Of a stretch of DNA of 37,547 nt, positions 3,914-36,305 are shown in pieces. Within the stretch, counting starts at the first letter, position 1; each line of letters opens with the position of its first letter. The position numbers and the translations under genes were made by a program. The DNA is from a virus (lineage: Duplodnaviria > Caudoviricetes). Below the pieces are notes generated by a model. The model searched no databases. It was not told the origin of the DNA and saw nothing but the letters and a program-made list of their open reading frames with translations. The DNA lies in IMG/VR virus record IMGVR_UViG_3300018080_000343, positions 1-37,547 of that record. One strand, given 5' to 3'.

Positions 3914-4366
3914 TTATTCGACCTCTTCGAATTGAATTTTTACCTTCTGGCCGCGGAAAGTAATAATCGCCCCTCGCATGTCGCAGTTGCATAATATCGC
4001 CCTGGACAAATCCGCTTCGGATAAATTCGCTTCGTACAAATTCGCCCTGGATAAATTCGCTTCGTACAAATTCGCTTCGTACAAATTCGCCCTGGATAAA
4101 TTCGCTTCGGATAAATTCGCCCTGGATAAATCCGCTTCGGATAAATCCACTTCGCACGAATTCGCCCTGGACAAATTCGCTTCGTACAAATTCGCTTCGT
4201 ACAAATTCGCCCTGGATAAATTCGCTTCGGATAAATTCGCCCTGGATAAATCCGCCCTGTACAAATTCGCCCCGGATAAATTCGCCCGTTCGCCGCCCTC
4301 TTTCGATTCCAGCCATAACATGTGCTTTCTCAGCACCTCTGCCAATTCTTCTGCCGTCATCTTCAT
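3914..4366 (-). CDS. pentapeptide repeat protein
   Basis: ELAEVLRKHMLWLESKEGGERANL N-terminus, then tandem A(N/D)L(S/Y)(E/R) pentapeptides (15-nt DNA repeats, about 3999-4290); start moved to ATG 4366 (MKMTAEEL). Confidence 0.92.
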   Translation of the reverse strand: MKMTAEELAEVLRKHMLWLESKEGGERANLSGANLYRADLSRANLSEANLSRANLYEANLYEANLSRANSCEVDLSEADLSRANLSEANLSRANLYEANLYEANLSRANLYEANLSEADLSRAILCNCDMRGAIITFRGQKVKIQFEEVE

Positions 4367-4439
4367 TTTCCCGCCCTCGTTGGTTAGTGGTTGCCGCTCT
4401 TTCCCTGCCAGGAAGGTAAAAGGGTGTTCGGTGTCATTT

Positions 4440-4730
4440 CTCGCTGTCACCCGGTTTTTGATGTTTTCCCTGGAGCACGAATTAAAACGCTGGTGACGTT
4501 GCTTTTCCACAGAACACGCTTCACGCGTGCGCGTGTGCGCGGGTACGCGCGTGCGCCCGCACACGTGAGTATGTTTCGTGAAAAATGGTGTCACCAACGT
4601 CACCCTCTCTCTCTCTCTCTCTCTAAGTTTAGTAGTAGTAGTAGTTTAGTATTTATTAGTAGAAGAAAAAAACGGTGACGTTCGTGGTGACGGTGACGTT
4701 CATCTCTGTGACACCCCACCCAAAAAAATG
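4440..4730. other. putative replication origin region
   Basis: Non-coding region downstream of the primase-helicase with several GGTGAC(G)/GTCACC copies in both orientations flanking (CT)10 at 4605-4624, (AGT)5 at 4631-4645 and an AT-rich tract. Confidence 0.5.
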
Positions 4731-7661: not shown

Positions 7662-7988
7662 TCAGACACGCTTGCCGCCGTGGCGGTAGCCACGCTGACG
7701 ATTCTTCTCCAGCTTCGCACGGACCACGGAATCGAAATCGTCCGTGAACGCGGCCACACAATCCAGGACACGGATCACGATGTCGGCCATTTCTTCGATG
7801 AAATTCTCGCCGTCGTCATGCCGGAAGGCTTCAAGAGCTTCGGACACTTCACTATGTATCAATGCCAGAATTGCAGGCACCTTGTATGCGCCGCCCCATT
7901 GTTCTGGCTGCGTCACGTTCCACCCGTTCCCCTCGTTTATCTGCCGGATCTCTTCTGCCAATTGCTGCAGCACTCTGTTCTCCGTCAT
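7662..7988 (-). CDS. MazG-like nucleotide pyrophosphohydrolase
   Basis: LALIHSEVSEALEAFR...EEMADIVIRVLD...KLEKNRQRGYRHGGK signature. Confidence 0.88.
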   Translation of the reverse strand: MTENRVLQQLAEEIRQINEGNGWNVTQPEQWGGAYKVPAILALIHSEVSEALEAFRHDDGENFIEEMADIVIRVLDCVAAFTDDFDSVVRAKLEKNRQRGYRHGGKRV

Positions 7989-8729: not shown

Positions 8730-8914
8730 TTTTTGATTCGATCACGCATGTATCGCAACAAGCCGATCAAATTCTGACGAAACCGCTGTCTTCCTTCACG
8801 CTTTGAATCTGCTTCGGGGAAATGTGCAATGTCGTTGTTCAAACAATCCCACGCATTTTGATTTTCGACGAGAAAATCAAAGTCAATATCAATCAGGTGT
8901 TTATCGTACAGCAT
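8726..8914 (-). CDS. hypothetical protein
   Basis: 62-aa ORF overlapping both neighbours in the operon. Confidence 0.5.
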   Translation of the reverse strand: MLYDKHLIDIDFDFLVENQNAWDCLNNDIAHFPEADSKREGRQRFRQNLIGLLRYMRDRIKK

Positions 8915-10223
8915 CTTCCAGCTCCCTCATTTTTTCGACGGCCATTGTCTTGCGTTTCCACAGGTGCGACTTGCGGCACCAGTCGCTTAGCGTCTGAGGT
9001 TTCGCGATGCAAACACAGAGTTGTTTGGCCCGACTGATTCCCGTGAGAACCCAGTGCCGATCGCATAGCCACTTAGCCCCGCTGCTTTCATCGCCGACGA
9101 CGAAAACAACCGGAAATTCTGCCCCTTGCGATTTATGGCAACTTATCGCATACGCCAATTCCCACTTGCCGGTGTCATCATCACCGCTGCTTCGCGGCTT
9201 ACTCACTCGCACAAGTCGATCTGGCGTATCAAGCTGGCAGATCGTGTTGCCGCCGTCAACTTCAATCACACGGGCCTGCTCGCCGTTGGCGACGTACACC
9301 CGCCGCTGATCATTCATCTCTTCACTGGGACAGCCAGGGGCAGCGAGATACCAGCCGTTTTTGCCGCACACGATTTTGTCGCCTTCGCGGTACGGGTTAC
9401 CCTTCGCCTGCTTGCCGGTTGGATTGAGATAGCCTTGCAGCATCGGGTTGAGTTTCTTCCGGCTGACTTCTGATTTTTCGTTGAGGGGCACAATCACCTG
9501 AGCATGCCAGATGGGGTCAACAACATCCTGCGACCAGTCCCATGCCGCTGACGTTGGATCGAGCCAATCGCGTAGCGCCTGCGTCTGTTCTGCCGGATTC
9601 TTCCACTCGCGATCAACGTGCAGATTCTCGCCTGCCGCCAGGTCGATTTCTGGCGAGTGTTGCCACTTACCTTCTTCCGCTATCAGCTTGCAGGTCTTCA
9701 CAATCCGGCCGGCGTTGCGGTGGATTTCCGTGAGGTGTCCACGCGGAACTCCCAACGCAATCATATCGCGGAATGGGGCACCGTGACCGACTGGCGGTAG
9801 CTGGTTCGGGTCGCCGATAAACAGGACATGGCCACCTTTCCGCCGTGCTGCCAGGAGGGAAGCCATCAGCGACGAGTCAATCATGCTCGCCTCGTCCACG
9901 AAGACAAACTGATGAGGTAGCGGGTTGCTCCGGTTATAACCGAAGTATCCGGCACCCTCCAGGTACGTGTAGGCGAGCAGCCGGTGTATCGTGGTGCAGT
10001 CTAGCCTGATGCCTTGCTCGCCGAGTGCTTCGGTCATTCTCCTGGCAGCCTTACCAGTCGGTGCCGCCCCCGCCATTCCGCTGCTGCCGTTGCGTTGGCG
10101 TAGCTGGCGGATCAGGTGCCCAAGGCAAGTAGTCTTGCCGCTGCCGGGTCCGCCGGTGAGTAGCCCCACCGTGCCGATGGTTGCGGAGTTGAGGGCGTCG
10201 AGTTGGTGGGCGGTTAGTTGCAT
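8901..10223 (-). CDS. recD2: RecD2-like SF1B helicase, C-terminal (motor) half
   Basis: Q motif LTAHQ, GGPGSGKTT, AAPTGKAARRM, TIHRLL, VDEASM, GDPNQLPPVG, LTEIHR, AYAISCHKSQGAEF, TGISRAK. Confidence 0.9.
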   Translation of the reverse strand: MQLTAHQLDALNSATIGTVGLLTGGPGSGKTTCLGHLIRQLRQRNGSSGMAGAAPTGKAARRMTEALGEQGIRLDCTTIHRLLAYTYLEGAGYFGYNRSNPLPHQFVFVDEASMIDSSLMASLLAARRKGGHVLFIGDPNQLPPVGHGAPFRDMIALGVPRGHLTEIHRNAGRIVKTCKLIAEEGKWQHSPEIDLAAGENLHVDREWKNPAEQTQALRDWLDPTSAAWDWSQDVVDPIWHAQVIVPLNEKSEVSRKKLNPMLQGYLNPTGKQAKGNPYREGDKIVCGKNGWYLAAPGCPSEEMNDQRRVYVANGEQARVIEVDGGNTICQLDTPDRLVRVSKPRSSGDDDTGKWELAYAISCHKSQGAEFPVVFVVGDESSGAKWLCDRHWVLTGISRAKQLCVCIAKPQTLSDWCRKSHLWKRKTMAVEKMRELEDAVR

Positions 10224-11206
10224 CCAAATATGTCCCCAATATCATTCGTTCGCTGCAACCCGGCGACACGTTCGGCGACAGCGTAGCACTCAACACCTCA
10301 CAATCCCAAACCAATCATTCGTTCGCTGCAACCGGCAGGTCCTCTGGTACGCGACCTGCCAGGGCGATCTCACAATCCCAAACCAATCATTCGTTCGCTG
10401 CAACACCGATGAGCCAATGGCCGATGAAGAAACGCTCCTCCTCACAATCCCAAACCAATCATTCGTTCGCTGCAACTAAATCGGCGGCTGTTCCACTGAC
10501 TGTCGACCATCAGACTCACAATCCCAAACCAATCATTCGTTCGCTGCAACGCAGACGCGAAGCCGAACGCGAGCCGGAGTTCCACGCTCACAATCCCAAA
10601 CCAATCATTCGTTCGCTGCAACTTCCCCGATGGCAACCATCAATACTACCGCCAATCCAACTCACAATCCCAAACCAATCATTCGTTCGCTGCAACTACG
10701 CGACGCGTGGGGGCGTCTGGCGGACATACCCCCTCACAATCCCAAACCAATCATTCGTTCGCTGCAACCGAGTCATCGTTCGGGGTTCGATCACCCAAGC
10801 GAGCCTCACAATCCCAAACCAATCATTCGTTCGCTGCAACTTGCGGCCTGCGATAAGGGCTCCATCCTTTAGCCGGCACCTCACAATCCCAAACCAATCA
10901 TTCGTTCGCTGCAACCATCACAAAGGTTACTACATCAGCGTACTGCGGAACTCACAATCCCAAACCAATCATTCGTTCGCTGCAACGCGAAGGAAAGCGG
11001 CTTGCAGCGATACATGCCCGCCTCACAATCCCAAACCAATCATTCGTTCGCTGCAACAAGCCACGTCCGCGCGGCGGCGGCGTCCGCCAGTCCCCCTCAC
11101 AATCCCAAACCAATCATTCGTTCGCTGCAACCTCCCTAAACGTAGCCGGAACCTCTCCGGAACCTGGCCGCTCACAATCCCAAACCAATCATTCGTTCGC
11201 TGCAAC
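10224..11206 (-). CRISPR. CRISPR array: 13 identical 36-nt repeats plus one degenerate trailer repeat, 13 spacers of 35-39 nt
   Basis: Plus-strand repeat CTCACAATCCCAAACCAATCATTCGTTCGCTGCAAC starts at 10297, 10369, 10441, 10515, 10587, 10661, 10733, 10805, 10880, 10951, 11022, 11096 and 11171; partial copy at 10241-10259. Transcribed sense inferred as GTTGCAGCGAACGAATGATTGGTTTGGGATTGTGAG because the degenerate copy is distal to the effector gene. Confidence 0.98.
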
Positions 11207-11488
11207 TCCGTCGCCATAAGTCCTTTCGCCACAACGGGCCAAAGACATACTTGCGAGAGCCCCCTGCCGATTGGCACCTCTTCCAACCTTCCTTGCAAGT
11301 CCCAGCTTCGGAAACTCTTGCTCAGAAGGAAGTTCTGACACGCGAGCGGTTCCCGGCCTCACAAATCTACGGCACTGCTCGCAAATCGGTAACTGATCAG
11401 ATTTCACCATTTGCAAAAATCTTTTGCGCGACAGTCGCACCGACTTGCCACACACTTCGCATGGCAACTCACGACGAATCTTCGCCAT
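11189..11488 (-). CDS. small Zn-ribbon protein (CEVC...CEQC) overlapping the CRISPR leader
   Basis: ATG 11488 (MAKIRRELPCEVCGK) with GGGAG upstream, overlapping the effector stop; the frame stays open through the leader and stops inside the first repeat. Confidence 0.5.
   Translation of the reverse strand: MAKIRRELPCEVCGKSVRLSRKRFLQMVKSDQLPICEQCRRFVRPGTARVSELPSEQEFPKLGLARKVGRGANRQGALASMSLARCGERTYGDGVAANE
11207..11330 (-). promoter_or_regulatory. putative CRISPR leader
   Basis: Lies between the effector gene and the first perfect repeat, at the opposite end from the degenerate repeat; boundaries approximate. Confidence 0.5.
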
Positions 11489-12614
11489 TGTCAATATCTC
11501 CCAGTCGCAATTTGCGAACCTTGACTTCGATTCCACGACGCGCTGCCGCATTTTTCAAATCGTCCAGCCATCGCGTCCAGTTCCAAGTCAAGCCGTTTGC
11601 CTCGAACCAGCATTTTTCTTTGGTTGGATTGGTGGGTTCCAGGTACTCCAATACGCCACAGCGATGCCGCTCGCATTGCTTAACCACATCTACGATTGCC
11701 CGCCGTCGCACCTCGGTCACAATGTCGGCAAGTTGAAGATTGCGCTTCGATACCGCGATATCTATTTTCTTTCGTCCGTGCCCCGCCCCCATTCGCTGCC
11801 GATATCTCCAGCCAATCTGTTTTCGCACGCCGACTAAGCGAAGTGTCTGCGAAATCAGGTACCGTCCTGCACCAATTCCCCAGGCACGACTACGCCCCGG
11901 AATCTCTAGCGAAAACGGTCGCTCGATTTCTCCTTTGCCGATCACCGGTGACAATGTAGCTATTCGATCAGTATCAAGTTGTTCCGTTTCAAACGCGACA
12001 GGAATATACCAGTACCATTTCCCGCGACGCTCAAGCAATTTCGAGTCGGCTAGTTTGCGTTCACCTCTTGCCAAGTCATGGATAATCCGCTTAATGCCAG
12101 TCGGCACGCCCTTGAGTGAGATTGTAAAGTCCAGCGAAATCTGCAAACTATTTCGCATGATGTTGCGAACATGGACTTGCACATCGTCCTCAAAGACAAT
12201 CGTGGTATGTTTATTTGCGATAGGCACTGACAAATCCGTGTAAAATGCCGGCCGTTCCTCACGCCGCAGAATCGCATCTTTTCGTTTCGGTCTTTTGCCG
12301 TTATCCGCTACACCCTTTCGCCAATCTACCTTAGCAGCCAGGAAAGAATTGACCTGTTGGGCAATGTTGCTTGCAACATCGGTGCCAAGTCGCGGTACAG
12401 ACGTTGTAATTGCATGGTAAAGTTTTGTTGATTCCGACAAGGGCTTGCCTTGTCGGTTTAATTTCGCTTGTTTGGCTGATTCCTTCCGGCCGCGAGCCCG
12501 CAATAGCCAGTCTTCGCTGGCTACATTGCGGGCCTCGCGACACAGACGAGCAACTTCTGTCAGCTCTGCCGGCGGATCAGTCAACTTCAATTTCAAAACT
12601 GTTATTGACTTCAT
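11469..12614 (-). CDS. Cas12f/TnpB-like type V effector, predicted nuclease-dead and C-terminally truncated
   Basis: KWYWYIPVAFE (WED strand), LDTDRIATLSPVIG where RuvC-I (LDPDxxxGVDLG) is expected, GHGRKK, IVDVVKQCERHRCGVLEYLE (RuvC-II region), W...LKNAAARRGIEVKV; ends without the Zn finger or the RuvC-III D; adjacent to the array. Confidence 0.85.
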   Translation of the reverse strand: MKSITVLKLKLTDPPAELTEVARLCREARNVASEDWLLRARGRKESAKQAKLNRQGKPLSESTKLYHAITTSVPRLGTDVASNIAQQVNSFLAAKVDWRKGVADNGKRPKRKDAILRREERPAFYTDLSVPIANKHTTIVFEDDVQVHVRNIMRNSLQISLDFTISLKGVPTGIKRIIHDLARGERKLADSKLLERRGKWYWYIPVAFETEQLDTDRIATLSPVIGKGEIERPFSLEIPGRSRAWGIGAGRYLISQTLRLVGVRKQIGWRYRQRMGAGHGRKKIDIAVSKRNLQLADIVTEVRRRAIVDVVKQCERHRCGVLEYLEPTNPTKEKCWFEANGLTWNWTRWLDDLKNAAARRGIEVKVRKLRLGDIDNGEDSS

Positions 12615-13117
12615 ACCGGCATCAATTTCCCTCTCCGTTCAAGCTCGACGATTCGTCCCTCCAAAATTCCCCGCTGTCGCTCGCTCTCGTCAAGACGTTC
12701 GCGAAACATCGCAGCTTGCTCGCGATACTCTTTCACGTTCGCTTCAGCTTGATCCAGTTTCAACTGGAGTTCTTTGGCCAGAGCCTTCCAATTTGTCTTC
12801 TGGATTTCACCCGCTTCTTTCGTTGGCGTTGCCAGATCGATCATGGCCCATACGTTGTATTGATATTCAGCCCATGTCGATTTTTTCGGATTGGCTCGAT
12901 AGGCTCGAACCAGTTCTGATACCGATGGCGAACCGCCAAAATGCGCGAATTCCTCTTCCTGCAAATGATCCATCAATTGTCCTTCTCCTCCGAACTGGTC
13001 GACATACTCTTTGTCGGCCAGCAGTTCGTCAACCAGTTGCAGCATGCGAAAGATATTCTCTCGCGATTGTTTGGCGAGCTTCTTTAATTCTGCTCGCTTC
13101 TGTCCACTCGTACTCAT
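12611..13117 (-). CDS. unknown helical/coiled-coil protein, translationally coupled to the Cas12f-like gene
   Basis: 168 aa; ATGA overlap at 12611-12614; heptad-rich C-terminal third (WKALAKELQLKLDQAEANV...LEGRIVELE); AAGGA RBS. Confidence 0.8.
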   Translation of the reverse strand: MSTSGQKRAELKKLAKQSRENIFRMLQLVDELLADKEYVDQFGGEGQLMDHLQEEEFAHFGGSPSVSELVRAYRANPKKSTWAEYQYNVWAMIDLATPTKEAGEIQKTNWKALAKELQLKLDQAEANVKEYREQAAMFRERLDESERQRGILEGRIVELERRGKLMPV

Positions 13118-13157
13118 TTCATTTTCCTTTCAAAAACGAAGACTTAAAACAGGAACC

Positions 13158-13321
13158 ATCAATCAGACACAGCCGCTCGGTTTGGGATTTCCGCGTCCTG
13201 ACGTAATCCACATCGCGGATTTACGGAATTTGGCGAGAGGTCCGGCTGTCACATTAAGACCTCCGGCTGCTCGCCATTCGGGCTGTGAGCACCCGTTTGA
13301 CTACGGCTGTGCCTGATTGAT
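13158..13321 (-). ncRNA. putative tracrRNA/scaffold RNA
   Basis: 18-bp closing inverted repeat (13158-13175 and 13304-13321; the only mismatch is G-U on the minus strand), internal hairpins, 13-nt anti-repeat at 13177-13189 and a loop CUCACA (13284-13289) complementary to the repeat 3' end UGUGAG. Confidence 0.75.
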
Positions 13322-14283
13322 TGCTCCCACTTCGCCTCTCCCGCCAAACCAAAATCATCATCCAGTTCGTGCCAAGCGACATGAAGATCGGACACCCACG
13401 AAGATTCAGCGTCAGCTTTCGCTGACTCGGCGTACCATCGTCGCCCATCGCCATCCACCCGCTCGCGGATCATGTCCCGCTCGATTGCATCGGCTATCGC
13501 TTCTCGCACCTGGACAGTAGCTCCCGCGATCTTCGCGTCTAGCTCTTTGCGAATCACGCTTTCGAGAAGCCACGTGCTACCAGAAGAATCGGATTCAAGA
13601 GCGTACAGGGCACAATGCGTCTGCCGGATCAACGCGCCCATCGGCAAGCCAAGTGACTCGTATAGCCGATCACAGAGCAAAAACCCACAGCCGGCAAACC
13701 CGCGAAGCACATACGGATTGTCGCGGATCACCTGCACTGCACTTTCGCCCCACGCCTCGATGCATTTCTGCGAGGTTGACTTTGGAAAACCGCGATTTGC
13801 CAGAAGCCCCTCAACCTCAATCGTGATTGCTTCCAGTGCTTTTCTGGCAGAGAAAAACGACGATGCAGCCTCAACCGTCGTGACATTGAGGCTGCATCGC
13901 TTGGCCACGCTGGCCGGCTCAAGTCGCAATTTCTCTAGTGCCAGCTCTCCAAATTCTGCGACGATCTTGATTGCTGCTTGCGGACCGATGCCGTTTGCCT
14001 TTTGTAAATATCGCTGGATGGCTTGCAGGTCGGTCGGCTCAACCGGAGTAAACGAAGAAAATTGAAACTGCCGACCGAACCTATCGTGTGTTTGCACCCG
14101 CCCCAGAAACCGATACTTCTCACCCATGCACAGCGAGCCGGCCTTGGCATTTCCTACTACCGTTTGCCCGTCTCGCATTTTGCCAACCACCCAGCGATCA
14201 GCCGAATCGTCTTCGCCGATCGCCCGGTGTTCGTGGGAGAAGATCCCGATTAGTTCTTCGGTTTTTGGGGTTACGACTGGCAC
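13249..14283 (-). CDS. recD2: RecD2-like helicase, N-terminal half (OB-like plus HhH domains)
   Basis: HDRFGRQFQFSSF...IQRYL...GIGPQAAIKIVAEFG, VIRDNPYVL..FAGCGFLLCDRL, SGSTWL motifs of the RecD2/YrrC N-terminus; no P-loop; the last about 25 codons read into the RNA element. Confidence 0.85.
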   Translation of the reverse strand: MPVVTPKTEELIGIFSHEHRAIGEDDSADRWVVGKMRDGQTVVGNAKAGSLCMGEKYRFLGRVQTHDRFGRQFQFSSFTPVEPTDLQAIQRYLQKANGIGPQAAIKIVAEFGELALEKLRLEPASVAKRCSLNVTTVEAASSFFSARKALEAITIEVEGLLANRGFPKSTSQKCIEAWGESAVQVIRDNPYVLRGFAGCGFLLCDRLYESLGLPMGALIRQTHCALYALESDSSGSTWLLESVIRKELDAKIAGATVQVREAIADAIERDMIRERVDGDGRRWYAESAKADAESSWVSDLHVAWHELDDDFGLAGEAKWEQSIRHSRSQTGAHSPNGEQPEVLM

Positions 14284-18578: not shown

Positions 18579-18992
18579 TCAGACATTCCCTCGCGGGTCT
18601 TCGGTCTTGCCCGCGATGATTGCTTTGGCCAGTACTCGATATTTGCGAATCGCTCGTCGCGTCAACCGGTGGATGTCGGCACGCGTCTCGGGGCCGGCGA
18701 ACTTCGCCAATGGCTTATCCTGCCGGCTGCAATTGCACGCCCGGCAAGCCGTGATAAGGTTGCTGGCGTCGTTGCTCCCGCCGTCCGACTCGCAGCAGAC
18801 GTGATCGAGGGTGATATCTGTGGGATGTGCTCCGTGGAGATCCTTGCAGCAGTAGACGCAACGGAAGGAATCCCGCAGGTAGATGGCCAGTCGCAGGTCT
18901 TTGCGGATGCAGACGCCTTTGTAGGCCCGCCGTGAATCCTTCGCCCGTTTCCCGCTTCGTCCGTTTTTCGCTTTGGCTGTTTTCGTTTTCAT
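18579..18992 (-). CDS. HNH endonuclease
   Basis: RDSFRCVYC, TLDHV, GGSNDASNLITACRACN; AAGGGAG RBS. Confidence 0.9.
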   Translation of the reverse strand: MKTKTAKAKNGRSGKRAKDSRRAYKGVCIRKDLRLAIYLRDSFRCVYCCKDLHGAHPTDITLDHVCCESDGGSNDASNLITACRACNCSRQDKPLAKFAGPETRADIHRLTRRAIRKYRVLAKAIIAGKTEDPRGNV

Positions 18993-27640: not shown

Positions 27641-28681
27641 TTACGCAGTTACGGCGGTTACGAGGTGCCCTGCTTCTTTGTGGATCATTTTGATTCCACG
27701 CTTATTGCGAGGACGAAGGAACTTGCCACGTGTTTTCTCGTCTTCGTATTCGTCGAAGATAAGAGAATCCTCACCGGCCATGTCCGAACCCGGCAACGGG
27801 TAGTTGTTCTTTGTGCAGAACAACGTTCTTCCGATGTGGGGCCGCGGCATTTCCAAGTCGCCCGTCCATCCGTCATCTTCGATTCGGCAGACGAGGCAAA
27901 GCGTCGTGTCCCAGAAGTCGGTAAACGATGGGGATGTATTGCCCTTCGGCTTGGAATTATAGGCCGCATCGCCAACGAGAATTTCTTGGAGTTGCAGCAA
28001 CTCAAGCAGCCCCGAAGTAACTTGTCGAACAGCACCGATATCCTGAGCCCCTTGGAGAGCGTTGAGGAGAATCTGGACGCCGTCGTATTTGAGAACGCCA
28101 GTCACCGCATCGGTGCGAAGCATCGCACGGTAAGCGGTGTAAGACATGACGGCATGCGTCGCCCGATAGCCGCATTGACTCTTGACCGAATCACTCGCCG
28201 AGTCGATATCGGCAATCGGCGTACCGCTTGCCGCAGTTGACCAAGCACCGCCGGTTGCAGTCGACTTGCCCGACCATACCGCCGCGCGAAAACAAGCGTG
28301 GGCAATGTCGTATTCGAGCCGGCGAAGCATGCGCCAGATTGCCCGTTCGCGGGCGATGGCTTCGACGCGGATCAAGTCGCCCCAGCGTTCAACTTTGCCG
28401 TAGTCAACTCGTTCTTCGACACCATGTTCAACAGTGTTGTAGTCGTCTTCGGTGAAACGACCTTCGTCGCGTCGATAAGTGCCGTCGAGGTTTCGGCGAG
28501 TGTCTTCGATGTTATGCTCGATGTGCTCTACATCAAGCCGTTGAAACTTCGCATTTTCTTGCGTCACACCAAGCGGCGGCAAGACGCGAAGTCCGATGTA
28601 TCCGCTCGCCATGACGCGGCTGGAAAACTCGGCATAGGTCAGCGACAGATCCCGCCGAGTGATGTTCGTGGTAGTATCCAT
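27641..28681 (-). CDS. major capsid protein (lambda gpE-like)
   Basis: 346 aa downstream of the protease and decoration genes; YIGLRVLP, EHGVEERV, PIADI, ILVGDAAYN motifs. Confidence 0.8.
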   Translation of the reverse strand: MDTTTNITRRDLSLTYAEFSSRVMASGYIGLRVLPPLGVTQENAKFQRLDVEHIEHNIEDTRRNLDGTYRRDEGRFTEDDYNTVEHGVEERVDYGKVERWGDLIRVEAIARERAIWRMLRRLEYDIAHACFRAAVWSGKSTATGGAWSTAASGTPIADIDSASDSVKSQCGYRATHAVMSYTAYRAMLRTDAVTGVLKYDGVQILLNALQGAQDIGAVRQVTSGLLELLQLQEILVGDAAYNSKPKGNTSPSFTDFWDTTLCLVCRIEDDGWTGDLEMPRPHIGRTLFCTKNNYPLPGSDMAGEDSLIFDEYEDEKTRGKFLRPRNKRGIKMIHKEAGHLVTAVTA

Positions 28682-28733
28682 TCGGTTTCTCCCTTTCTAA
28701 AGGCCGTAGCGTTACCACTCGGCGTTTTAATGG

Positions 28734-29126
28734 TTACGATGCGACTCGTTTCGGCAGGTATTGAGCCAATACTTCGTCACCGGCTGCCACTGCGGCTTCC
28801 AGGGCAATGCCCCATTGAACGCCGCTTACGGTATCGTCAACTCGCCCGTTCGTCGCCGGGTAAAGCGTCGCGTAAGCCGAAAACGCACCGGCTGCAACCA
28901 CACGATAAACCTTGCCGGCAACCAGCGGTTCGCAGCTTACAACCTCGTCCACCGAGCCGTAGAATTGTGCCGTTGATAAGCCGGCCTGCGTTTGCAGATC
29001 CGTGGTACCATTCGTCGCCAACTTCACGTCGCCGTCAGCATCGCGTGTCAGGCGAAGGTTAGGACCAATATCCCGTCCCTTGTTGTTCGGGATCGGGAAT
29101 GCACCTTCGTAAGCAAGTGCGGGCAT
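28734..29126 (-). CDS. capsid decoration/cement protein (DUF2190-like)
   Basis: VVAAGAFSAYATLY...GRV...GIALEAAVAAGDEV; start moved to ATG 29126 behind AAGGGAG. Confidence 0.75.
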   Translation of the reverse strand: MPALAYEGAFPIPNNKGRDIGPNLRLTRDADGDVKLATNGTTDLQTQAGLSTAQFYGSVDEVVSCEPLVAGKVYRVVAAGAFSAYATLYPATNGRVDDTVSGVQWGIALEAAVAAGDEVLAQYLPKRVAS

Positions 29127-29176
29127 TTTATTTCTCCCTTTGGTTAAGTTCAGGTGACTTGGTTCATGCTCGCGTG

Positions 29177-30667
29177 TTAGCTTACAGCGGTAACGCCGAG
29201 CGCGTCGAAACGTTCGTTGAGCGATCGCTTCGCGTATTGGGTGTTGTTTGTGGCCAGCAAGTACGCTTGAGCCAGTTTGGGATTCCGGCGCCGCACTGCG
29301 TCGACCGCCTGCAGCCGTTCGCAACGATAACGCTCCATGTGAGCGATGACAGCCGAATCGAAATCTTCGATCGGATCACCGGTTTCGCCAGCATCACTGG
29401 AAGACTCGACGGTAAGAGGTTGCCAACCGGTTCCGGCCGACGGTGCCGACGACTTCGCGGCTTGAGCTTCTTCCAACTCTTTCTTATGCCGCTCTTCGGC
29501 TTCGGCTGCTTTGCTCTCGACGTGCTGGGCATACGCCTTCGAGGCGTCGAGCATTGTTGCCCCGGCTTCCAGTTGCGACAGAATCCAATCGCTGCCGGCG
29601 TTCGGGAAAGCCGCTTTCAATTCAGCAAGTGTAGCAGGTTCCATCTTTTTGGTCTCCTTTGCTACGGGGGTTAAGACTTGTGCCGGTTGCGGCTTCCGCG
29701 TACCGACTAGATCACGTACAGCGTTAAGCGCTTGGCCGTAGGTGCCAATCTGATCAATCAGCCCCGCAGCTTTCGCGTCATCTGCAAAAATCACCCGGCC
29801 GTCGGCGAGTGGCCGCACGCTTTCGACCGGGCGGTTCCGACCAGCAGCAATGAGGAGGAGGTAGTTTTCATTCAGCCGGTCAACGATTCTTTGTATCTCA
29901 TTGATTTGTTCTTCGGTAATTTGTGTTCCCGGCTCGCCCATGCCTTTAAATTCGCCGGCCTTGACCACAATCACCTTAACGCCAAGTTGATCCGCTCGCC
30001 CGCTCATGTCTTCCAGGACGGCGTAGGTGCCCATTGCCCCATACATCGCAGCACTATTGTTGGCCCATATCTGCGTTGTCTGGCTGATCACGCTGACGCC
30101 GGCTGATGCGGTCATGTCCTCGACAAATCCGACAATCGGTTTTTCCTGGGCGAACCGTCGCACCTCGTCAGCAAGATCGCTATTCCCTCTGGCTGTTCCG
30201 CCAGGGGTGTCCATGTAAAGCAAAGCCCCGCCGATATCCGCCGACCGCCTCGCCGCCCTGAGTTGCTGGCGAAGACGAACGGTTGATGTGCCCTCTGCCA
30301 GGGAAGATACCTGTTTCATCATCGGGCCATTGACGCGAAGGATTGCAATGCCGTCGTCGGTGGATTCGTACGTGACCGCTGATTGCTGCTTGACCACATC
30401 GGCTGCTTGCTGGCTCTGAATATGGGCATGAAGATTGATGCCTTGCACTCGCTGGACAGCGTTGCGAAACGACTCTGGCTCAATCATCCAAATGCCGAAA
30501 TGATCAAACAGGTTTGGCACTTGGACGCTGAAGTTCGGCATCAAAATAAAATCATCTTCTGCGTGAGGATCTCCAGCGTGTGCCCGTTCGCAGGCTTCTT
30601 TTGTATCGTACTGACAGGGGCCGTTTCCCCATTGCCACTTGCCGTTGTCGCACTGCTTGCAAGGCAT
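29177..30667 (-). CDS. S49 (SppA/gpC-like) prohead protease with C-terminal scaffold region
   Basis: IAILRVNGPMMK, LYMDTPGG, MTASAG, KAGEFKG, ADGRV..A..A...GLID; C-terminal PATLAELKAAFP region. Confidence 0.88.
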   Translation of the reverse strand: MPCKQCDNGKWQWGNGPCQYDTKEACERAHAGDPHAEDDFILMPNFSVQVPNLFDHFGIWMIEPESFRNAVQRVQGINLHAHIQSQQAADVVKQQSAVTYESTDDGIAILRVNGPMMKQVSSLAEGTSTVRLRQQLRAARRSADIGGALLYMDTPGGTARGNSDLADEVRRFAQEKPIVGFVEDMTASAGVSVISQTTQIWANNSAAMYGAMGTYAVLEDMSGRADQLGVKVIVVKAGEFKGMGEPGTQITEEQINEIQRIVDRLNENYLLLIAAGRNRPVESVRPLADGRVIFADDAKAAGLIDQIGTYGQALNAVRDLVGTRKPQPAQVLTPVAKETKKMEPATLAELKAAFPNAGSDWILSQLEAGATMLDASKAYAQHVESKAAEAEERHKKELEEAQAAKSSAPSAGTGWQPLTVESSSDAGETGDPIEDFDSAVIAHMERYRCERLQAVDAVRRRNPKLAQAYLLATNNTQYAKRSLNERFDALGVTAVS

Positions 30668-30669
30668 AT

Positions 30670-32490
30670 CTATTTCTCCTCGTCTTCACCTTCTGGTTGC
30701 ATCGGCTGTCCTTGTTGATCAACCGACTTTGCCTCAGACTCGCCGCCGATGCTGCCAGTGAGAGCAACCTGTACGCCTCCGGTTTGATTGCCGTAGGCCA
30801 ACTCGCGAGCAAGTGCGGGGATCTCCGACTCGTCGATGCGATCGGAGAATCGCTTTTGTAGGAGAACCGCTTGTTCAAATCCTTCGCCGAGCCACGAAGC
30901 ACGGTCGCCGATTACCTCTCGCCGGTGATCGTCGTAATCAACGCCGCGGTTCGCCAAGATGCGACGCAACGATTTAAGATTTCGTTTCTCCGCGAGGTCT
31001 TCAGCCGCAGCATCTTCAAGCGGCTTTACGTAGGGCCAGCCGGTCGGGCGGAAGACATAGCGAAACGGATTGGCACCTCGTTCAACGGCTGTCGCTAACG
31101 CCCGGTCGAATAGCGGATGTCCAGGCGTCAATCGTTGCCGAGTGCGGATCTCGTAGGTCGGTCCCCAAAGCCCCTTGCGTTGCATGTCCTGGAGTTGGGT
31201 GAAGCGGAGCCGGATTTGATCGGTGATCATTCGGCCGCCGTGGAAGTTGACCTTCGAGCCGTCGAGAAGAAGGAACATCAGCGGGATATCGAGATTCACG
31301 CTTAGCATCGTAAGCATAAGCGAAGCATGTTCGAACCATTGCGGAGTCGGGATGTTCGCGTCAACGCCTTTCATCGTTTTGCCGATCGGCAAATCAAAAA
31401 CTTGAGCCGGTTGTCCGGCTTGCTCAACGATAATTGATCGCAAGCCGAGCCCGTGATCTGTCGCGTATCGGTCGCCAGCTTGCGGAATACCGCTGTCCTC
31501 TCTGTCTTTTTCAGCCGTGAATGGGTTTTGGCCGGTCTGCTCTTTTTCTTCGAGCCAGTAGGACAACAGGGCCCGTTTCAGCATCGACTTGATGTGAGCA
31601 AAGTTGCTGTCTTCGAATCCATTCATCGCATCTCGCGGCGGCGAAAATCTGGAAATGCCGCGGCGTTGCTGGAATCGGTGCATAAACCCGATGTGAAAAA
31701 CGATCTTATTTCCATCTTGGTCGGTCGCCTCGAAGAATCGTGACTTGTGCCGCTGAGTGATCGAGCCGTATGGGCTGACGTAATTTGGGGTCAGCCAGTA
31801 GCCGGCTACCCTGCCGCCGCGAATCTCGACGCCGTGAATAATGCCGTTGTCAGCCTCGCCCGTCGCACGATGGCCGTAGGGATTGCGAAGGTGGTGCGAC
31901 TCGAAGGTTTGTAGCCGGCCGTCGAACAGCGGCAGATGGATGATATCCCCGTCAACCACCTGGCTGAAAAATGATTGGCAAGCCAACGCCGCAAAATCTC
32001 GCTCGCCCTCATAGTCGCACAGATTGCGGCCAGCCTGCGTCTCGCCGGTGAAAAGCAACCAGTCAGCTTTCTGGTCGGCGTCTAATGTTGGGTCGCCTGA
32101 ATTCACGTCGAGCGTGAATTCACCAAGCCGCAGATTTGCACCGAGCCGATTCACACCAGACTCGACAAGTGGATGGTTTCGGACAGCCGCCCGGCCGCGT
32201 TCTACCATGAGGAAGTAGTTGCGTTCGGTCGCGAAATGCGTATCGGCGTCGGTGCCGAGAGGATTGACCCCTCGTGGCACGGGGTTCATGCGGTCCGACT
32301 CGCCGGCGTAATAGGACGAGCGGGCCTCCAGGTGATCGCGTTCGAGCCGAAATAGCCGCTCGAATAGCTCTGTCGATTCTCGCGGTGACACTGCCCACTG
32401 ACGCGATGTGTCCGGTTTCGTCGTGGGGGCTGACCGGTAATAGCTTGTCGTCAGCGTCAGTTTCCCGTTGTCATTGTTGCCACTCATCAC
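30670..32490 (-). CDS. portal protein (lambda gpB family)
   Basis: AVRNHPLV, VVDGD, IIHGVE, QQRRGISRFSP, VNFHGGR, WPYVKPLED motifs; position between terminase and protease. Confidence 0.85.
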   Translation of the reverse strand: MMSGNNDNGKLTLTTSYYRSAPTTKPDTSRQWAVSPRESTELFERLFRLERDHLEARSSYYAGESDRMNPVPRGVNPLGTDADTHFATERNYFLMVERGRAAVRNHPLVESGVNRLGANLRLGEFTLDVNSGDPTLDADQKADWLLFTGETQAGRNLCDYEGERDFAALACQSFFSQVVDGDIIHLPLFDGRLQTFESHHLRNPYGHRATGEADNGIIHGVEIRGGRVAGYWLTPNYVSPYGSITQRHKSRFFEATDQDGNKIVFHIGFMHRFQQRRGISRFSPPRDAMNGFEDSNFAHIKSMLKRALLSYWLEEKEQTGQNPFTAEKDREDSGIPQAGDRYATDHGLGLRSIIVEQAGQPAQVFDLPIGKTMKGVDANIPTPQWFEHASLMLTMLSVNLDIPLMFLLLDGSKVNFHGGRMITDQIRLRFTQLQDMQRKGLWGPTYEIRTRQRLTPGHPLFDRALATAVERGANPFRYVFRPTGWPYVKPLEDAAAEDLAEKRNLKSLRRILANRGVDYDDHRREVIGDRASWLGEGFEQAVLLQKRFSDRIDESEIPALARELAYGNQTGGVQVALTGSIGGESEAKSVDQQGQPMQPEGEDEEK

Positions 32491-32822
32491 GCCCTCTTCC
32501 GATAAGTGGACACGGTGTCGTCGTACTTCCCGAAGTCGCTGAAATCAGCGTGCAGGACTGCAGGACGGGCCTTGCGCTGAGCCTCCGTCTGTGAGCGATT
32601 GGCTGCAATCCACTGCAAACAGCGGTCTAGCTGCTCGCCAAGCGTTTGCATATTCCAAGCGTATTGATTACTGCCCTCGGAGGAACTCTGCACTTGGCCA
32701 AGCATAGCCCGGAGTGCTTTCGCGTGCCGCTTAGCGTCGGCGAGAGACTGGTCTACGTCGTAGCCCAGAGTGTCTTCGTAGACCGTTTTAACGCCCGATG
32801 GGGTAGAAAAATCGTCTGCCAT
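32487..32822 (-). CDS. putative head completion protein (gpW-like position)
   Basis: 111 aa directly upstream of the portal gene with GTGA overlap. Confidence 0.5.
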   Translation of the reverse strand: MADDFSTPSGVKTVYEDTLGYDVDQSLADAKRHAKALRAMLGQVQSSSEGSNQYAWNMQTLGEQLDRCLQWIAANRSQTEAQRKARPAVLHADFSDFGKYDDTVSTYRKRA

Positions 32823-32982
32823 ACCTTTCGAAAATAGGCTAAGCAGACGATTAAGGGCAATAGAAAGAGAAGATTACAGACTTGGTATTCTTGGTAAAGC
32901 GTTAAATAGTGGCCATCCAAGCCGCACCAGCCCCCATGAGAGTCGCAAAGATCATAAGTAACGATAGTTTCCATAGCATCAT

Positions 32983-33318
32983 TTAATCCTCAAAAAAAGA
33001 ATCCCGCTCGCCGCCATTGCAAACGTCGTGCAGTTGCTCAAATAGCCACTGGGCTGCGTGTCGCCGATCAGTGACTCTACGGCCAGAAGAAAGGACCGTC
33101 TGGGCCCTGTCGAGTGCGATCGCCAGCCCGCCGAGTGCCGCCGCCTCCCGCTTACCGAGATGCACGTTGACATGGTAAGTGCTCACGTTATCCGGTAGCT
33201 GATCCACCTCCGGCAGCCGGACAACTAACCCCGGCTCGTTTTTTACTTGTGCCCGCATCTGTTCAACCTCCTCGGTTAGCGTTGCAACCTGTTGCTCTAA
33301 TTCCGCTTTTGTTGGCAT
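32983..33318 (-). CDS. hypothetical protein
   Basis: GAGGAGG RBS; N-terminal coiled coil. Confidence 0.6.
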   Translation of the reverse strand: MPTKAELEQQVATLTEEVEQMRAQVKNEPGLVVRLPEVDQLPDNVSTYHVNVHLGKREAAALGGLAIALDRAQTVLSSGRRVTDRRHAAQWLFEQLHDVCNGGERDSFFED

Positions 33319-33333
33319 GGTTTTACCTCCTCG

Positions 33334-35496
33334 TTACCATCGGCCTCTTGTGAATTGTCCGGTTGTCGGCACCGCTGCAACTGGGGCAGGCGTCGATCTT
33401 CGCGCCTTGGCGGTCGGTGCCACCTTTTCTATCGTGCGGGTGATCGGCTCCAGACGCTCAATACCTCGCATAATGCGGCCAAGGATCGTCAACGCCGTGC
33501 TGTCCAAATAGTGATTCTGTTTTCGCACCTTCCACCAGCCGAGCCGGTTTTTCTTCCAGCCTTTTTCGAAGCGTTCCTCCCAGATTTCCGCCGTCACCTG
33601 AAACGCAAAGGTCTTGTGCGGCAATCGCGTGTCCGTCTCGAACACCCGAAGCGAGCCAGTGTAGCCCGTTTCTGTGAGAAACCCTGAATGCACTTGCAGC
33701 TTAAATGTGTCAGGGTCAAAAAGAATTACGCCTTCCTTACTGGCGTGCCATCCAGGTCCACCAATGTCCGCCCATTGCGGCCGGCGGTATGGGCTCCAAC
33801 CTTTCGTTGGAATAAATCGGAGCGTACCGACTTCCCGGCAGAACTTCCGCACGGGCTGCTCTTTCCAAGGCTCCTCTTTCCACCCCTCGTCGATCGCGAT
33901 CAAATCGACGTGATAGGGCAGTTTGTCGATCACCTCTGTTTTCCAATCGTGCAAAGCGTTGTAGATGCACAGATCCATTGTTTCGATAGGCAAGCCGGCA
34001 GAATGGAAATCGAAAAAATCGTAGTCCACGATCGAGCCGGCAGCCTCCGAGTTCCACGCGGTAGTGGTGTACTCCAGACCGGCCTTGCGAATGTCGACGC
34101 CGCAGACGATTCCCGTCGCGTCGTCTGGGATCTCCTGGCGTTTCAGCCCGGACCCACACTGATACATGATATGATCTGGCGTCAAAATCAACGGCTGCTC
34201 GGCATCTGCCGGCGGGTCGTTTTGGTGTTCCGTAAGAAACGAATCCATGCCGTTGTCGGCGATGTAGTCGTAGCATTTCTGCAGCGCCGATAAGTGCTCT
34301 GGCTGCTTGTCGTCGAGTAAATCGGTGTTGTAGTCGTGCCCCGAAGACATCTCGCAGCCAGCGTGCATTTTGTCGAATCGTTCCCGCAGAAAATCACGGG
34401 CTTCGCGGGCGTGCTTGTCATGCGGCTGTCGGTTGCGGCGTAGCTCAATATATGTCTCCCACAAATCGAGCCGATCGGGCCATTTGATGATTCGCGGGAC
34501 TCGCTGACCGTCCCAGGATGGCTTCTCGTCCCGGTCGGTGTACTGATAGGCCGCTGAACGCCGGCTAGTGATCGTACAGATAAACACCTTGCCAAGCCGC
34601 TTGTTCGGTCCGCCCAGCCCCGCGACAGTCTTGTCAATGCAATCCTCGATCTTTCCGGCTATTAGCCCTTGTTCGGCTGCGAGGCTGTCTCGGCTGTCCA
34701 GGTCGTCGAGCATAACGAAGTCCGGCCGGCGGTCGTAGATATTGAGCCCCTGAAGCGAATCAGACGAGAACCCCAAGCACATCAACACCGGCCCCAACTC
34801 GGTTTCGTTTTTGGGCAATCCGTACTTGACGGTCGCGTACTTCCCCCGCCCGTCCGGCAGACTGGGCAGCACGACGTGTTGCGGTCCCCACTCGACCCGG
34901 ACGGGCAACCCGCCCCATGTCACGCTGCGAGCCCTCGACGGTGCCGGCGCGATGTAGCGGCAGATCGATGTCTCAAACGGAAAATCCTCGTGCAGCTTTT
35001 TGTTGGTGATAGTCCGCAGCTTTGCCTTAATGTCACGCAAGATCTGTTCGCCCTTGGTTGTCGTGGCTGCGAGAATCAGCGGAAACTTCAGTTGCCGATA
35101 GAGAGCGTACTTGAGTTGGAGGTACTTGAGGATGGTAGACTTCCCGCTGCCTCGCGGCATCGCCATTGCCTTCGATGTGCCGTATCGAATCGCCCGGCCG
35201 CAGTCCTCGATGAATTGCTTTTGAGCGCTGGTGAATGGAGCATAGAACACATCGGGGAAATACGTGCGCAGGAACTTTTGGTCGTCCTTCTCGCAAGCTC
35301 GACGGCGTCGCGGATTCTGAACGATGCGGGCGGGAATGTCGCGACCCGACGACCGCATCTCCCGCTTGCGAATCGCGTCGGCTGCCCGCACTTTGTCGGC
35401 CTGCTCCGCTGGCATCCCCTTGAGCGCAGCCTTCAGTTTTCGCCGTTGCTCCTGCAACTTGCGGTCTGCGGCTCGTAGTTCTTCGATGGTTGGCAT
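33334..35496 (-). CDS. terL: terminase large subunit (GpA-type)
   Basis: Walker A AMPRGSGKST, Walker B VMLDD, FLTEHQNDP, nuclease CGVD, IAIDEG, NHYLDS; start moved to ATG 35496 (TAATG coupling). Confidence 0.9.
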   Translation of the reverse strand: MPTIEELRAADRKLQEQRRKLKAALKGMPAEQADKVRAADAIRKREMRSSGRDIPARIVQNPRRRRACEKDDQKFLRTYFPDVFYAPFTSAQKQFIEDCGRAIRYGTSKAMAMPRGSGKSTILKYLQLKYALYRQLKFPLILAATTTKGEQILRDIKAKLRTITNKKLHEDFPFETSICRYIAPAPSRARSVTWGGLPVRVEWGPQHVVLPSLPDGRGKYATVKYGLPKNETELGPVLMCLGFSSDSLQGLNIYDRRPDFVMLDDLDSRDSLAAEQGLIAGKIEDCIDKTVAGLGGPNKRLGKVFICTITSRRSAAYQYTDRDEKPSWDGQRVPRIIKWPDRLDLWETYIELRRNRQPHDKHAREARDFLRERFDKMHAGCEMSSGHDYNTDLLDDKQPEHLSALQKCYDYIADNGMDSFLTEHQNDPPADAEQPLILTPDHIMYQCGSGLKRQEIPDDATGIVCGVDIRKAGLEYTTTAWNSEAAGSIVDYDFFDFHSAGLPIETMDLCIYNALHDWKTEVIDKLPYHVDLIAIDEGWKEEPWKEQPVRKFCREVGTLRFIPTKGWSPYRRPQWADIGGPGWHASKEGVILFDPDTFKLQVHSGFLTETGYTGSLRVFETDTRLPHKTFAFQVTAEIWEERFEKGWKKNRLGWWKVRKQNHYLDSTALTILGRIMRGIERLEPITRTIEKVAPTAKARRSTPAPVAAVPTTGQFTRGRW

Positions 35497-36305
35497 TAGT
35501 GATGTTGCTGCACTCGCAACGGGTTGTGATACCCCGCAGGCAGATACCGCTGCAAGTCCTTTTTGATGTAGTGTCGGACGCCAAGCTGTTGACACAGCTC
35601 GACGATTTCATGCGTGTAGCTTTCCCAATCAGTGGATTGTGTCATCGGCAAGTAGTTCGCCCGTCCGATTTTGTAAAGATCGACGAACCGAAATGTCCGC
35701 TGGATGATTTCGAGACTGCTATCTGTGTCTAGTGTTGGCTCAAGTGACACCCAGGTGAAAATGCCCGCCTGGTGAAATGCCCGTAGCGTACTGATGCGAT
35801 CACTTGGCAATGCGGCGTTGGGTTCCCATCGGTTACTGAATTCGACATCAAGGCTAGTCAGCGTCGAGGCGAACGCGTCACGACCAGGACGGAATAGGTC
35901 GATATCCCGCAGCGCCCGCGAGCCGCCCTTGGTCAGCGTGCAGACCGCAAGCCCGTGCCCCTGCAAAATGCGGATTGTTTCCGATGTCAATGCGGTGTCG
36001 CCCGGATGATAGGGGTCGGTCGTGAAGCTGAGCATTACTTGCTCGGTGATCCCAGCCACCCGATACTTCGCCGCATCCTTCTTTAGCTTCGCCAGAAATC
36101 CCGGCCGCTCTATGGCTCCAGCGTCGAATTCCGACCGCGACATGCGGAGCACTTTCGGAACATAGCAGTACTTGCAGCCGTGTCCGCAGCCCCGATATGG
36201 ATTCGTCGCCAGCGGTGCATACTCGCCAGCTTGACCACGTGGGGCGTAGATCATCGAACAGTTCTTGACGGATACGCCGTCCGGGTTCAGAATGACGTTA
36301 GACAT
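35496..36305 (-). CDS. radical SAM protein (SplB/Rv2578c-like)
   Basis: NPYRGCGHGCKYCY (CxxxCxxC), LSFTTDPY, LTKG, WEPNA, TWVSLEP. Confidence 0.9.
   Translation of the reverse strand: MSNVILNPDGVSVKNCSMIYAPRGQAGEYAPLATNPYRGCGHGCKYCYVPKVLRMSRSEFDAGAIERPGFLAKLKKDAAKYRVAGITEQVMLSFTTDPYHPGDTALTSETIRILQGHGLAVCTLTKGGSRALRDIDLFRPGRDAFASTLTSLDVEFSNRWEPNAALPSDRISTLRAFHQAGIFTWVSLEPTLDTDSSLEIIQRTFRFVDLYKIGRANYLPMTQSTDWESYTHEIVELCQQLGVRHYIKKDLQRYLPAGYHNPLRVQQHH

Follow-up and report, generated by a model that had tools for sequence, protein, structure and literature searches.

The window analysed here, a stretch of 37,547 nt, comes from a tailed-phage record that is 53% complete. It contains a CRISPR module in which a predicted tracrRNA is followed by a gene for a helical partner protein, a Cas12f-fold effector, a small basic ORF with four cysteines, a leader and a CRISPR array, see Table 1. 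The module is flanked by the two halves of a recD2 helicase gene. The effector frame is uninterrupted and its start is coupled to the gene before it, whose stop codon it overlaps, both as claimed in the original prediction. The motifs quoted there are also present, LDTDRIATLSPVIG at residues 213-226, GHGRKK at 278-283, GVLEYLEP at 320-327 and GIEVKV at 361-366, and the protein does end 15 residues after GIEVKV, with neither CxxC nor ADxNAA in that stretch. Logan contigs from three runs in three studies (one possibly the source) cover the effector and both flanks with zero differing letters. Thus, the early stop is not an assembly error. The array is collapsed in the contigs of these three runs, which a 36-nt repeat is expected to cause in assemblies of this kind.

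Table 1. Features of the module and its surroundings; coordinates are positions in the window.
Feature	Position	Strand	Description
RecD2 helicase, N-terminal half	13249..14283	(-)	Model positions 27-308; upstream flank of the cassette
Predicted tracrRNA	13143..13335 (ends approximate)	(-)	Closing stem arms 13152-13175 / 13304-13327; covarying core
Anti-repeat 1 (predicted)	13284..13289	(-)	Within a hairpin loop; complement of the repeat's last 6 nt
Anti-repeat 2 (predicted)	13179..13189	(-)	Complementary to repeat positions 21-31
Partner gene, 168 aa	12611..13117	(-)	All-helical N-terminal domain (~1-98) and coiled coil; stop overlaps effector start
Cas12f-fold effector	11469..12614	(-)	381 aa; other residues at the RuvC-I Asp and RuvC-II Glu positions; no zinc finger or RuvC-III
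Basic ORF, 99 aa	11189..11488	(-)	CxxC-x22-CxxC; starts in the last 20 nt of the effector; 3' half overlaps leader; stop inside repeat 1
Array leader	11207..11395	(-)	Fixed length; short conserved motifs at 11375-11385, 11339-11349 and 11250-11260
CRISPR array	10297..11206	(-)	13 identical 36-nt repeats; 13 spacers of 35-39 nt; last spacer 10260-10296
Spacer 5	10841..10879	(-)	Matches the phage's own terminase gene: 30/39 nt, residues of 11/13 codons identical
Terminal repeat	10224..10259	(-)	19 nt intact, then runs into the start of the RecD2 C-terminal half
RecD2 helicase, C-terminal half	8901..10223	(-)	Model positions 315-709; downstream flank of the cassette
Site homologous to spacer 5	33775..33813	(-)	In the terminase large subunit gene, 33334-35595

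The effector remains unnamed by Pfam, NCBIfam and PHROGs, with no match in any of them. Its AlphaFold2 model (pLDDT 94.3) has the compact fold of type V-F, with REC, WED and RuvC core. The best fold match of this model is AsCas12f (Foldseek E 4e-19; VIA Z 23.7, rmsd 4.4, 336 aligned positions), followed by the natural dCas12f 9n9c (Z 21.8; profile E 2e-6), while TnpB (Z 14.8) and Cas12m (Z 11.6) score lower. A word-index search with the effector found 52 further proteins, at 37-74% identity, of which 51 have a length of 374-453 aa, and a profile search of cluster representatives gave 440 matches at E<=0.001, the best 150 of which were listed. The homologue set contains 173 proteins of at least 350 aa (63 close and 110 distant; shorter matches were excluded). 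In INPHARED the sole match is gp53 of Bacillus phage Mgbh1, at 28.5% identity over half its length; this protein (L183 682-1983) is an intact Cas12f-like protein annotated as a transposase. At the DNA level 26 related loci were fetched, two of which are the window sequence and four duplicates, leaving 20 distinct others. All five loci from IMG/VR are virus records.

The loss of the RuvC-I Asp is confirmed by alignment to OsCas12f, AsCas12f and an intact Cas12f-like phage protein (P0307), in which the GVDLG/GIDLG strand corresponds to TLSPVIG of the effector. Position 223 is Pro in 62 of the 63 close homologues, and the strand carries no conserved acid. A possible RuvC-II Glu was noted in GVLEYLEP; however, this reading is out of register. 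In the comparison with OsCas12f and P0307, CGVLEYLEP pairs with CGTIQMEDL, the catalytic Glu falls on L325 and E326 matches the following Asp. At position 325, 53 of the 63 close homologues have R or H. With the RuvC-II Glu aligned to L325, all three catalytic positions are lost. The C-terminal end shows the same family-wide pattern, as neither CxxC nor [AR]DxN is found after position 366 in any of the 173 full-length homologues, and PF07282 matches the intact control P0307 but not the effector (P0001). Compared with type V-F, the effector chain thus lacks both the RuvC D-E-D triad and the C4 zinc finger (TNB). The claim that the zinc finger has gone therefore stands for the effector ORF, but not in full for the locus, where a separate ORF with a CxxC-x22-CxxC pattern starts 20 nt before the effector stop.

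Judged from codon comparisons, the effector gene is under purifying selection. In the dN/dS check against the closest locus, synonymous sites are saturated and dN is 0.21 (pS 0.86 and pN 0.185 between the window and L007). As the C-terminal truncation is common to the 173 homologues, and pS is saturated against a pN of 0.185, the truncation must be old and maintained. Close homologues that are full-length and active would have made this a recent pseudogene, but none of the 173 has a C-terminal zinc finger. The effector lies in two frames in two of the 20 distinct other loci (L020 and L023), either by decay or by sequencing error.

The predicted tracrRNA lies upstream of the partner gene, 0.6 kb upstream of the effector. 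The region has a folding z of -6.1 and is conserved in the window and 10 other loci. Two-sided changes are seen in 11 of the 22 consensus pairs of its core, while none of 500 shuffles scored as high and the slid controls were all lower; the consensus structure was derived from the same sequences that were tested. The shorter of the two putative anti-repeats sits in a hairpin loop, as does AR:R 1 of Un1Cas12f (PMC8053092). Ten loci contain both the RNA and a repeat. In all 10, the longer anti-repeat 2 scores best with the repeat of its own locus (mean 11.9 vs 6.2), and for anti-repeat 1 that repeat comes first or shares first place, including three loci with a differing repeat end. For L002, L014, L017 and L026 the repeat was chosen manually, from one copy or from irregular ones, and in L014 its boundary was set after the tracrRNA had been seen. 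An array together with a tracrRNA that forms two anti-repeat duplexes, as in type V-F, is thereby predicted computationally. The conserved region between effector and array was also considered as the tracrRNA and was ruled out: only 9 consensus pairs are found there, none with two-sided changes, at a z of -0.4, and the region has a fixed length and motifs that ignore changes in the repeat, unlike the upstream RNA. Rfam has no match in 10150-13450, and no sigma-70-like promoter is found in 10150-13500.

The family-wide loss, the selection, the Cas12f fold and the co-variation of tracrRNA and repeat all fit the original proposal that the effector is maintained for guide-dependent binding and not for cutting. 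The proposal covers a part of the module, in which the effector is one of three conserved genes and would depend on the predicted tracrRNA. As a compact CRISPRi-type scaffold, also put forward there, the protein would not stand alone, since the structure of a natural dCas12f of 365 aa (9n9c) has been solved.

The small four-cysteine ORF is found in all 15 distinct other loci that cover the 3' end of the effector, and database searches give 36 matches, itself included. In the alignments it has a clear coding signature. Differences in a DNA-only alignment are 0.42/0.38/0.63 by codon position, 15 of 15 gaps are multiples of 3, and the other two same-strand frames carry stops in 15 of 15 loci. The four cysteines are invariant in the 15 aligned loci, with TGC and TGT used freely. 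For the 5' half this signature rules out that the ORF is a by-product of leader conservation, while the 3' half is under both coding and leader constraints. Both Cys codons are retained in L002, L005, L014 and L016 despite a broken DNA motif.

It can tentatively be suggested that the 99-aa protein is the detached zinc-finger end of an ancestral Cas12f, a close call on which we lean slightly to the negative side. In favour of this origin is the position at the 3' end of the effector, where the zinc finger and RuvC-III would be. The spacing from the first to the third Cys is also similar, 26-27 in 15 of 16 loci vs 25 in Un1Cas12f, whose zinc cysteines are C475/C478/C500/C503 (PMC8053092). Further, in seven of the 57 homologues with tails of at least 30 aa, the C-terminal tail is fused in frame and resembles the product of the small ORF's 3' half (E 4e-6 to 3e-3). 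Against it, the small ORF in L003 accompanies the leader and not the effector. Profile searches with the small ORF give weak generic zinc-ribbon matches only, and there is no significant similarity to the zinc-finger region of P0307 (hhalign probability 2.4%). A complex prediction of effector residues 165-381 with residues 3-70 of the small ORF and zinc gave a score of 0.00, which speaks neither way. The matching tails (P0115, P0132, P0140, P0144, P0152, P0172 and P0184) have no cysteines and represent same-frame read-through into the leader; weaker tail matches to the small ORF occur in the distant effector homologues P0097 and P0179.

The partner gene lies upstream of the effector in 13 of the 14 distinct other loci with upstream cover; L025 has no partner within 1.1 kb, and six loci had too little upstream DNA to be counted. 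A search with the partner gave 83 matches, all at E<1e-32, and for 18 of 51 effector matches the longest contig is equal in size to that of a partner match. In the predicted model of the protein, six helices make up the N-terminal domain and the remainder is a long coiled coil. In seven of the 83 homologues (P0256, P0258-P0261, P0264 and P0265; see also L024 200-960) the coiled coil is swapped for a different domain of ~155 aa, which has no Pfam match in the four that were scanned. Searches with the partner give coiled-coil matches only, none of them at E<=0.001 in BFVD or PDB, and in the Atlas it falls into unnamed viral clusters. No nuclease and no helix-turn-helix family or fold was matched by the whole protein, the coiled coil dominating the fold search, and the N-terminal domain may still have a known fold. 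The partner may resemble YhcG-type helix-turn-helix domains, and it can be speculated that it is an adaptor or an autoregulator.

Arrays were detected automatically in 13 loci and at least one repeat was found by eye in four more, while the fetched DNA of L020, L023 and L025 contains none. The arrays of L016, L007 and L014 are irregular, with shortened repeats and spacers, and the 3' part of the repeat that pairs with the tracrRNA is retained. The region before the array in the window is probably an adaptation leader, as its motifs are similar to those that guide Cas1-2 from spaced positions 100-200 bp upstream of arrays (bioRxiv 2023.05.26.542337). A scan with the leader motifs returned 120 loci, none with a match to the effector, the partner or the small ORF. 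No cas1 is found in six virus records; five of these are fragments (53-70% complete), so the absence is firm only for the complete G009.

A credible target was found for one of the 13 spacers in the window, and for one of the 58 distinct spacers from all loci. This is spacer 5, which resembles a site in the terminase gene of the phage itself. The two differ by 9 mismatches, of which 5 are synonymous and 5 lie within the first 9 nt of the spacer. It is the best match of the 58 distinct spacers on 309 kb from five phage records, and its score exceeds those of all 82 shuffled spacers (max 0.71). The simplest reading of this single case, from sequence comparison, is that spacer 5 may have been captured from a related phage, the terminase site being homologous to the true protospacer and not the protospacer itself. 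Exact scans of IMG/VR with spacers 1, 4 and 5 returned this phage only, and no targets were found in INPHARED or in a degenerate terminase scan. The array gave 10 short matches to 301 genomes, with E from 5e-4 to 9e-3. A search for the host gave 0 of 401 genomes from Planctomycetota, the phylum of G001, and genome contigs contained no confirmed locus. The window also has 18 of 20 nt in common with spacer 3 at 8746-8765, just upstream of an ERCC4-like gene, probably by chance (E 0.02 in a small search).

The 3.1-kb cassette, from the tracrRNA to the broken last repeat, splits recD2 at the boundary between the N-terminal and helicase domains, between model positions 308 and 315. TGGG is found at both junctions (13326-13329 and 10235-10238), in phase with each half, and both halves are open. 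In G008 recD2 is one ORF, and the neighbours of the cassette differ among the long loci. Because the cassette interrupts a gene that is whole in G008 and has different neighbours elsewhere, the module is mobile between phages. No close relative with an uninterrupted recD2 was found, nor an empty site in four runs, and neither the cassette nor the 42 window ORFs scanned contain a transposase or integrase family.

The gene order is shuffled in L003, L005, L021, L007, L017 and L024, and in several loci repeats flank the effector on both sides. In L003 (8561-11462) the array, preceded by the small ORF and leader, lies on the upstream side of the effector. In L005 (8734-11465) an array with 30-nt spacers is located between partner and effector, and the small ORF has no array after it. 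Elsewhere in the window, a lambda-like head module is encoded at 27641-35595 (-), with terminase, portal, S49 protease and major head protein, and a pentapeptide-repeat protein at 3914-4603 (-) gives rise to a 15-nt tandem repeat at 3946-4320. Other genes encode a radical SAM protein (35496-36305), an HNH protein (18579-18992), MazG (7662-7988) and RecT-like and SSB-like proteins.

We suggest that the module is probably a tracr-dependent, nuclease-dead Cas12f, which would act as a guided DNA clamp and block transcription or replication of competing, related phages without cutting. The array would be transcribed from the leader side, and the crRNAs would pair with the tracrRNA through the two anti-repeats, as in Cas12f. 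The effector, probably as a dimer, could then form an R-loop beside a PAM and stay bound, and binding within essential genes would create a roadblock, by analogy with Cas12m. New spacers may be supplied by Cas1-Cas2 of the host acting on the fixed-length leader, and the phage would evade its own spacer 5 through the mismatches at the 5' end of that spacer. Two parts of this scheme have precedents, as Cas12m protects by DNA binding (PMC11013384) and viral arrays target related viruses (PMC11656645).

An extended version of the clamp would be a three-protein type V system. Here, the split-off, leader-encoded zinc finger would act in trans, either on the effector or on the leader during acquisition, and the partner, with its new helical domain and exchangeable C-terminus, would dock on the dead effector for active silencing of rival phages. 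We regard this whole combination as possible but unlikely.

Alternatively, the effector could be an RNA-guided regulator of promoters of the host or of the phage itself, with repression by the clamp or activation by way of the 168-aa partner, like TldR and dCas12f-sigma-E. The C-terminal truncation is as in the sigma-E-linked dCas12f, the second-best fold match, and guides of array-linked dCas12f sometimes target efflux promoters (PMC13472631). Also, no target was found for 12 of the 13 window spacers. However, no sigma factor is found among the 42 window ORFs scanned, the arrays are long and regular, with unique spacers as would result from ongoing acquisition, and the sole credible spacer match lies in a phage terminase coding region, which together make a regulatory role quite improbable.

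It is very unlikely that the protein is still a nuclease, whether by rearrangement of its active site or because the four-cysteine protein or the 168-aa partner completes that site in trans. Three acids, D309, E326 and D/E373, are kept in 89-95% of the close and 70-86% of the distant homologues, rearranged TnpB sites can be active (PMC10691335), and the small ORF is located where the zinc finger and RuvC-III would be. However, the RuvC-I strand has no acid, the small ORF has no conserved acid at the ADxN-like position after the second CxxC, and the partner matches no nuclease family or fold.

Dead Cas9 and repeat mimics carried by phages act as decoys (PMC10910872, PMC11656645). A similar role here, as a decoy or anti-CRISPR in which a host type V system loses guides, tracrRNA or Cas1-Cas2 to the dead effector and its RNAs, would agree with the fixed-spacing motifs retained in the leader. 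However, the repeat is particular to each locus and the tracrRNA fits it, a sign that the system is self-contained, and a decoy needs no 13-spacer array with a putatively phage-derived spacer. We consider this role highly improbable. Nor do we give more than slight credence to a selfish mobile cassette that would use guide-directed binding to spread into new phage sites. The break in recD2 falls on a domain boundary, TGGG flanks it on either side, the halves are in phase and the gene is intact in G008, which would suit such an element, as would the different neighbours in every long locus and the likewise lost RuvC-III of CasMu-V (PMC10910872). Still, it would have to work without a transposase or integrase family in the cassette or the 42 ORFs scanned, no spacer matches the junction, and four runs show no empty site. 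Finally, a decaying pseudogene of an active Cas12f is largely refuted, since, in spite of frame breaks in two loci, the truncation is common to 173 full-length homologues, purifying selection is strong and the tracrRNA covaries.

The module bears on the role of phage-borne, nuclease-dead type V systems. The parts for testing it are located: the effector, the tracrRNA with its anti-repeats, the repeat, the leader, the two partners and a candidate target class, the terminase of kin phages. If the clamp reading is true, binding-only defence in the style of Cas12m extends to the Cas12f lineage and to conflict between phages, and the family would provide natural dead binders of 374-450 aa, together with a large number of orthogonal tracr/repeat pairs. 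Should the small ORF prove to be the detached zinc finger, the case would be one of a natural split Cas12, with a protein encoded inside the CRISPR leader.

Among known systems, Cas12f1 (AsCas12f 8dzj/8j12, OsCas12f 9nzq and Un1Cas12f1 7c7l) is the best fold match. The 36-nt repeats are shared, as is a tracrRNA with a short anti-repeat in a loop and a longer second one. In contrast to Cas12f1, the effector has neither the three catalytic positions nor the zinc finger, and the module contains two extra genes, with three ORFs separating the tracrRNA from the array. The dCas12f-sigma-E of Flagellimonas (PDB 9n9c, 365 aa, structure solved) shares size, truncation point and fold, and like it the effector is a nuclease-dead, C-terminally truncated Cas12f. 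However, dCas12f-sigma-E has an adjacent rpoE, while no sigma family is found in the 42 window ORFs and the flanks here are the partners and the recD2 halves. It also has a fused single guide and has mostly lost its array, whereas the module is virus-borne, with 13 repeats and a separate tracrRNA.

Truncated dCas12f beside arrays is already in print, as an array-associated, nuclease-dead and C-terminally truncated Cas12f was noted by Hoffmann, Wiegand et al. (PMC13472631). Going by the description in the available parts of that paper, its cluster shares with the module the Cas12f fold, a truncation that removes part of RuvC, a nearby array and predicted repression. It differs by targeting efflux promoters, and those parts mention no phages, helical partner or four-cysteine ORF. 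The motif and labels of the effector family have no match in the supplements of PMC13472631 that were searched, which may not contain the sequences. A published catalogue contains inactivated branches of Cas12f and V-U, among them V-U24 and its HTH partner (PMC10691335). As described in the accessible text, V-U24 (Altae-Tran et al. 2023) has a non-canonical RuvC-I, as does our effector, and one conserved partner, called HTH; the four-cysteine ORF is not mentioned there, and PMC10691335 may list this family. For this ORF, or for any split or leader-encoded zinc finger in such systems, we found no account in the literature searched, most subscription journals being outside its scope.

Other phage-borne or dead type V systems have been described (PMC10910872, bioRxiv 10.64898/2026.04.20.719267), and the family motif has no match in the supplements of PMC10910872 that were searched. 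CasMu-V has an adjacent Mu transposase, while here none is found among the 42 window ORFs, a test of adjacency in a record that is 53% complete. TldR is derived from TnpB, a lower fold match (Z 14.8), and has a single omega-type guide and no array, in contrast to the array and tracrRNA of the module. Cas12m retains its C-terminal region and is tracr-independent. Cas12m (type V-M), with ~600 aa and a weaker fold match (Z 11.6 vs 23.7), also differs from the 381-aa effector with its predicted tracrRNA. The likeness to Cas12m, on the reading of the module as a DNA clamp, would instead be one of function, namely defence between mobile elements by binding without cutting (PMC11013384).
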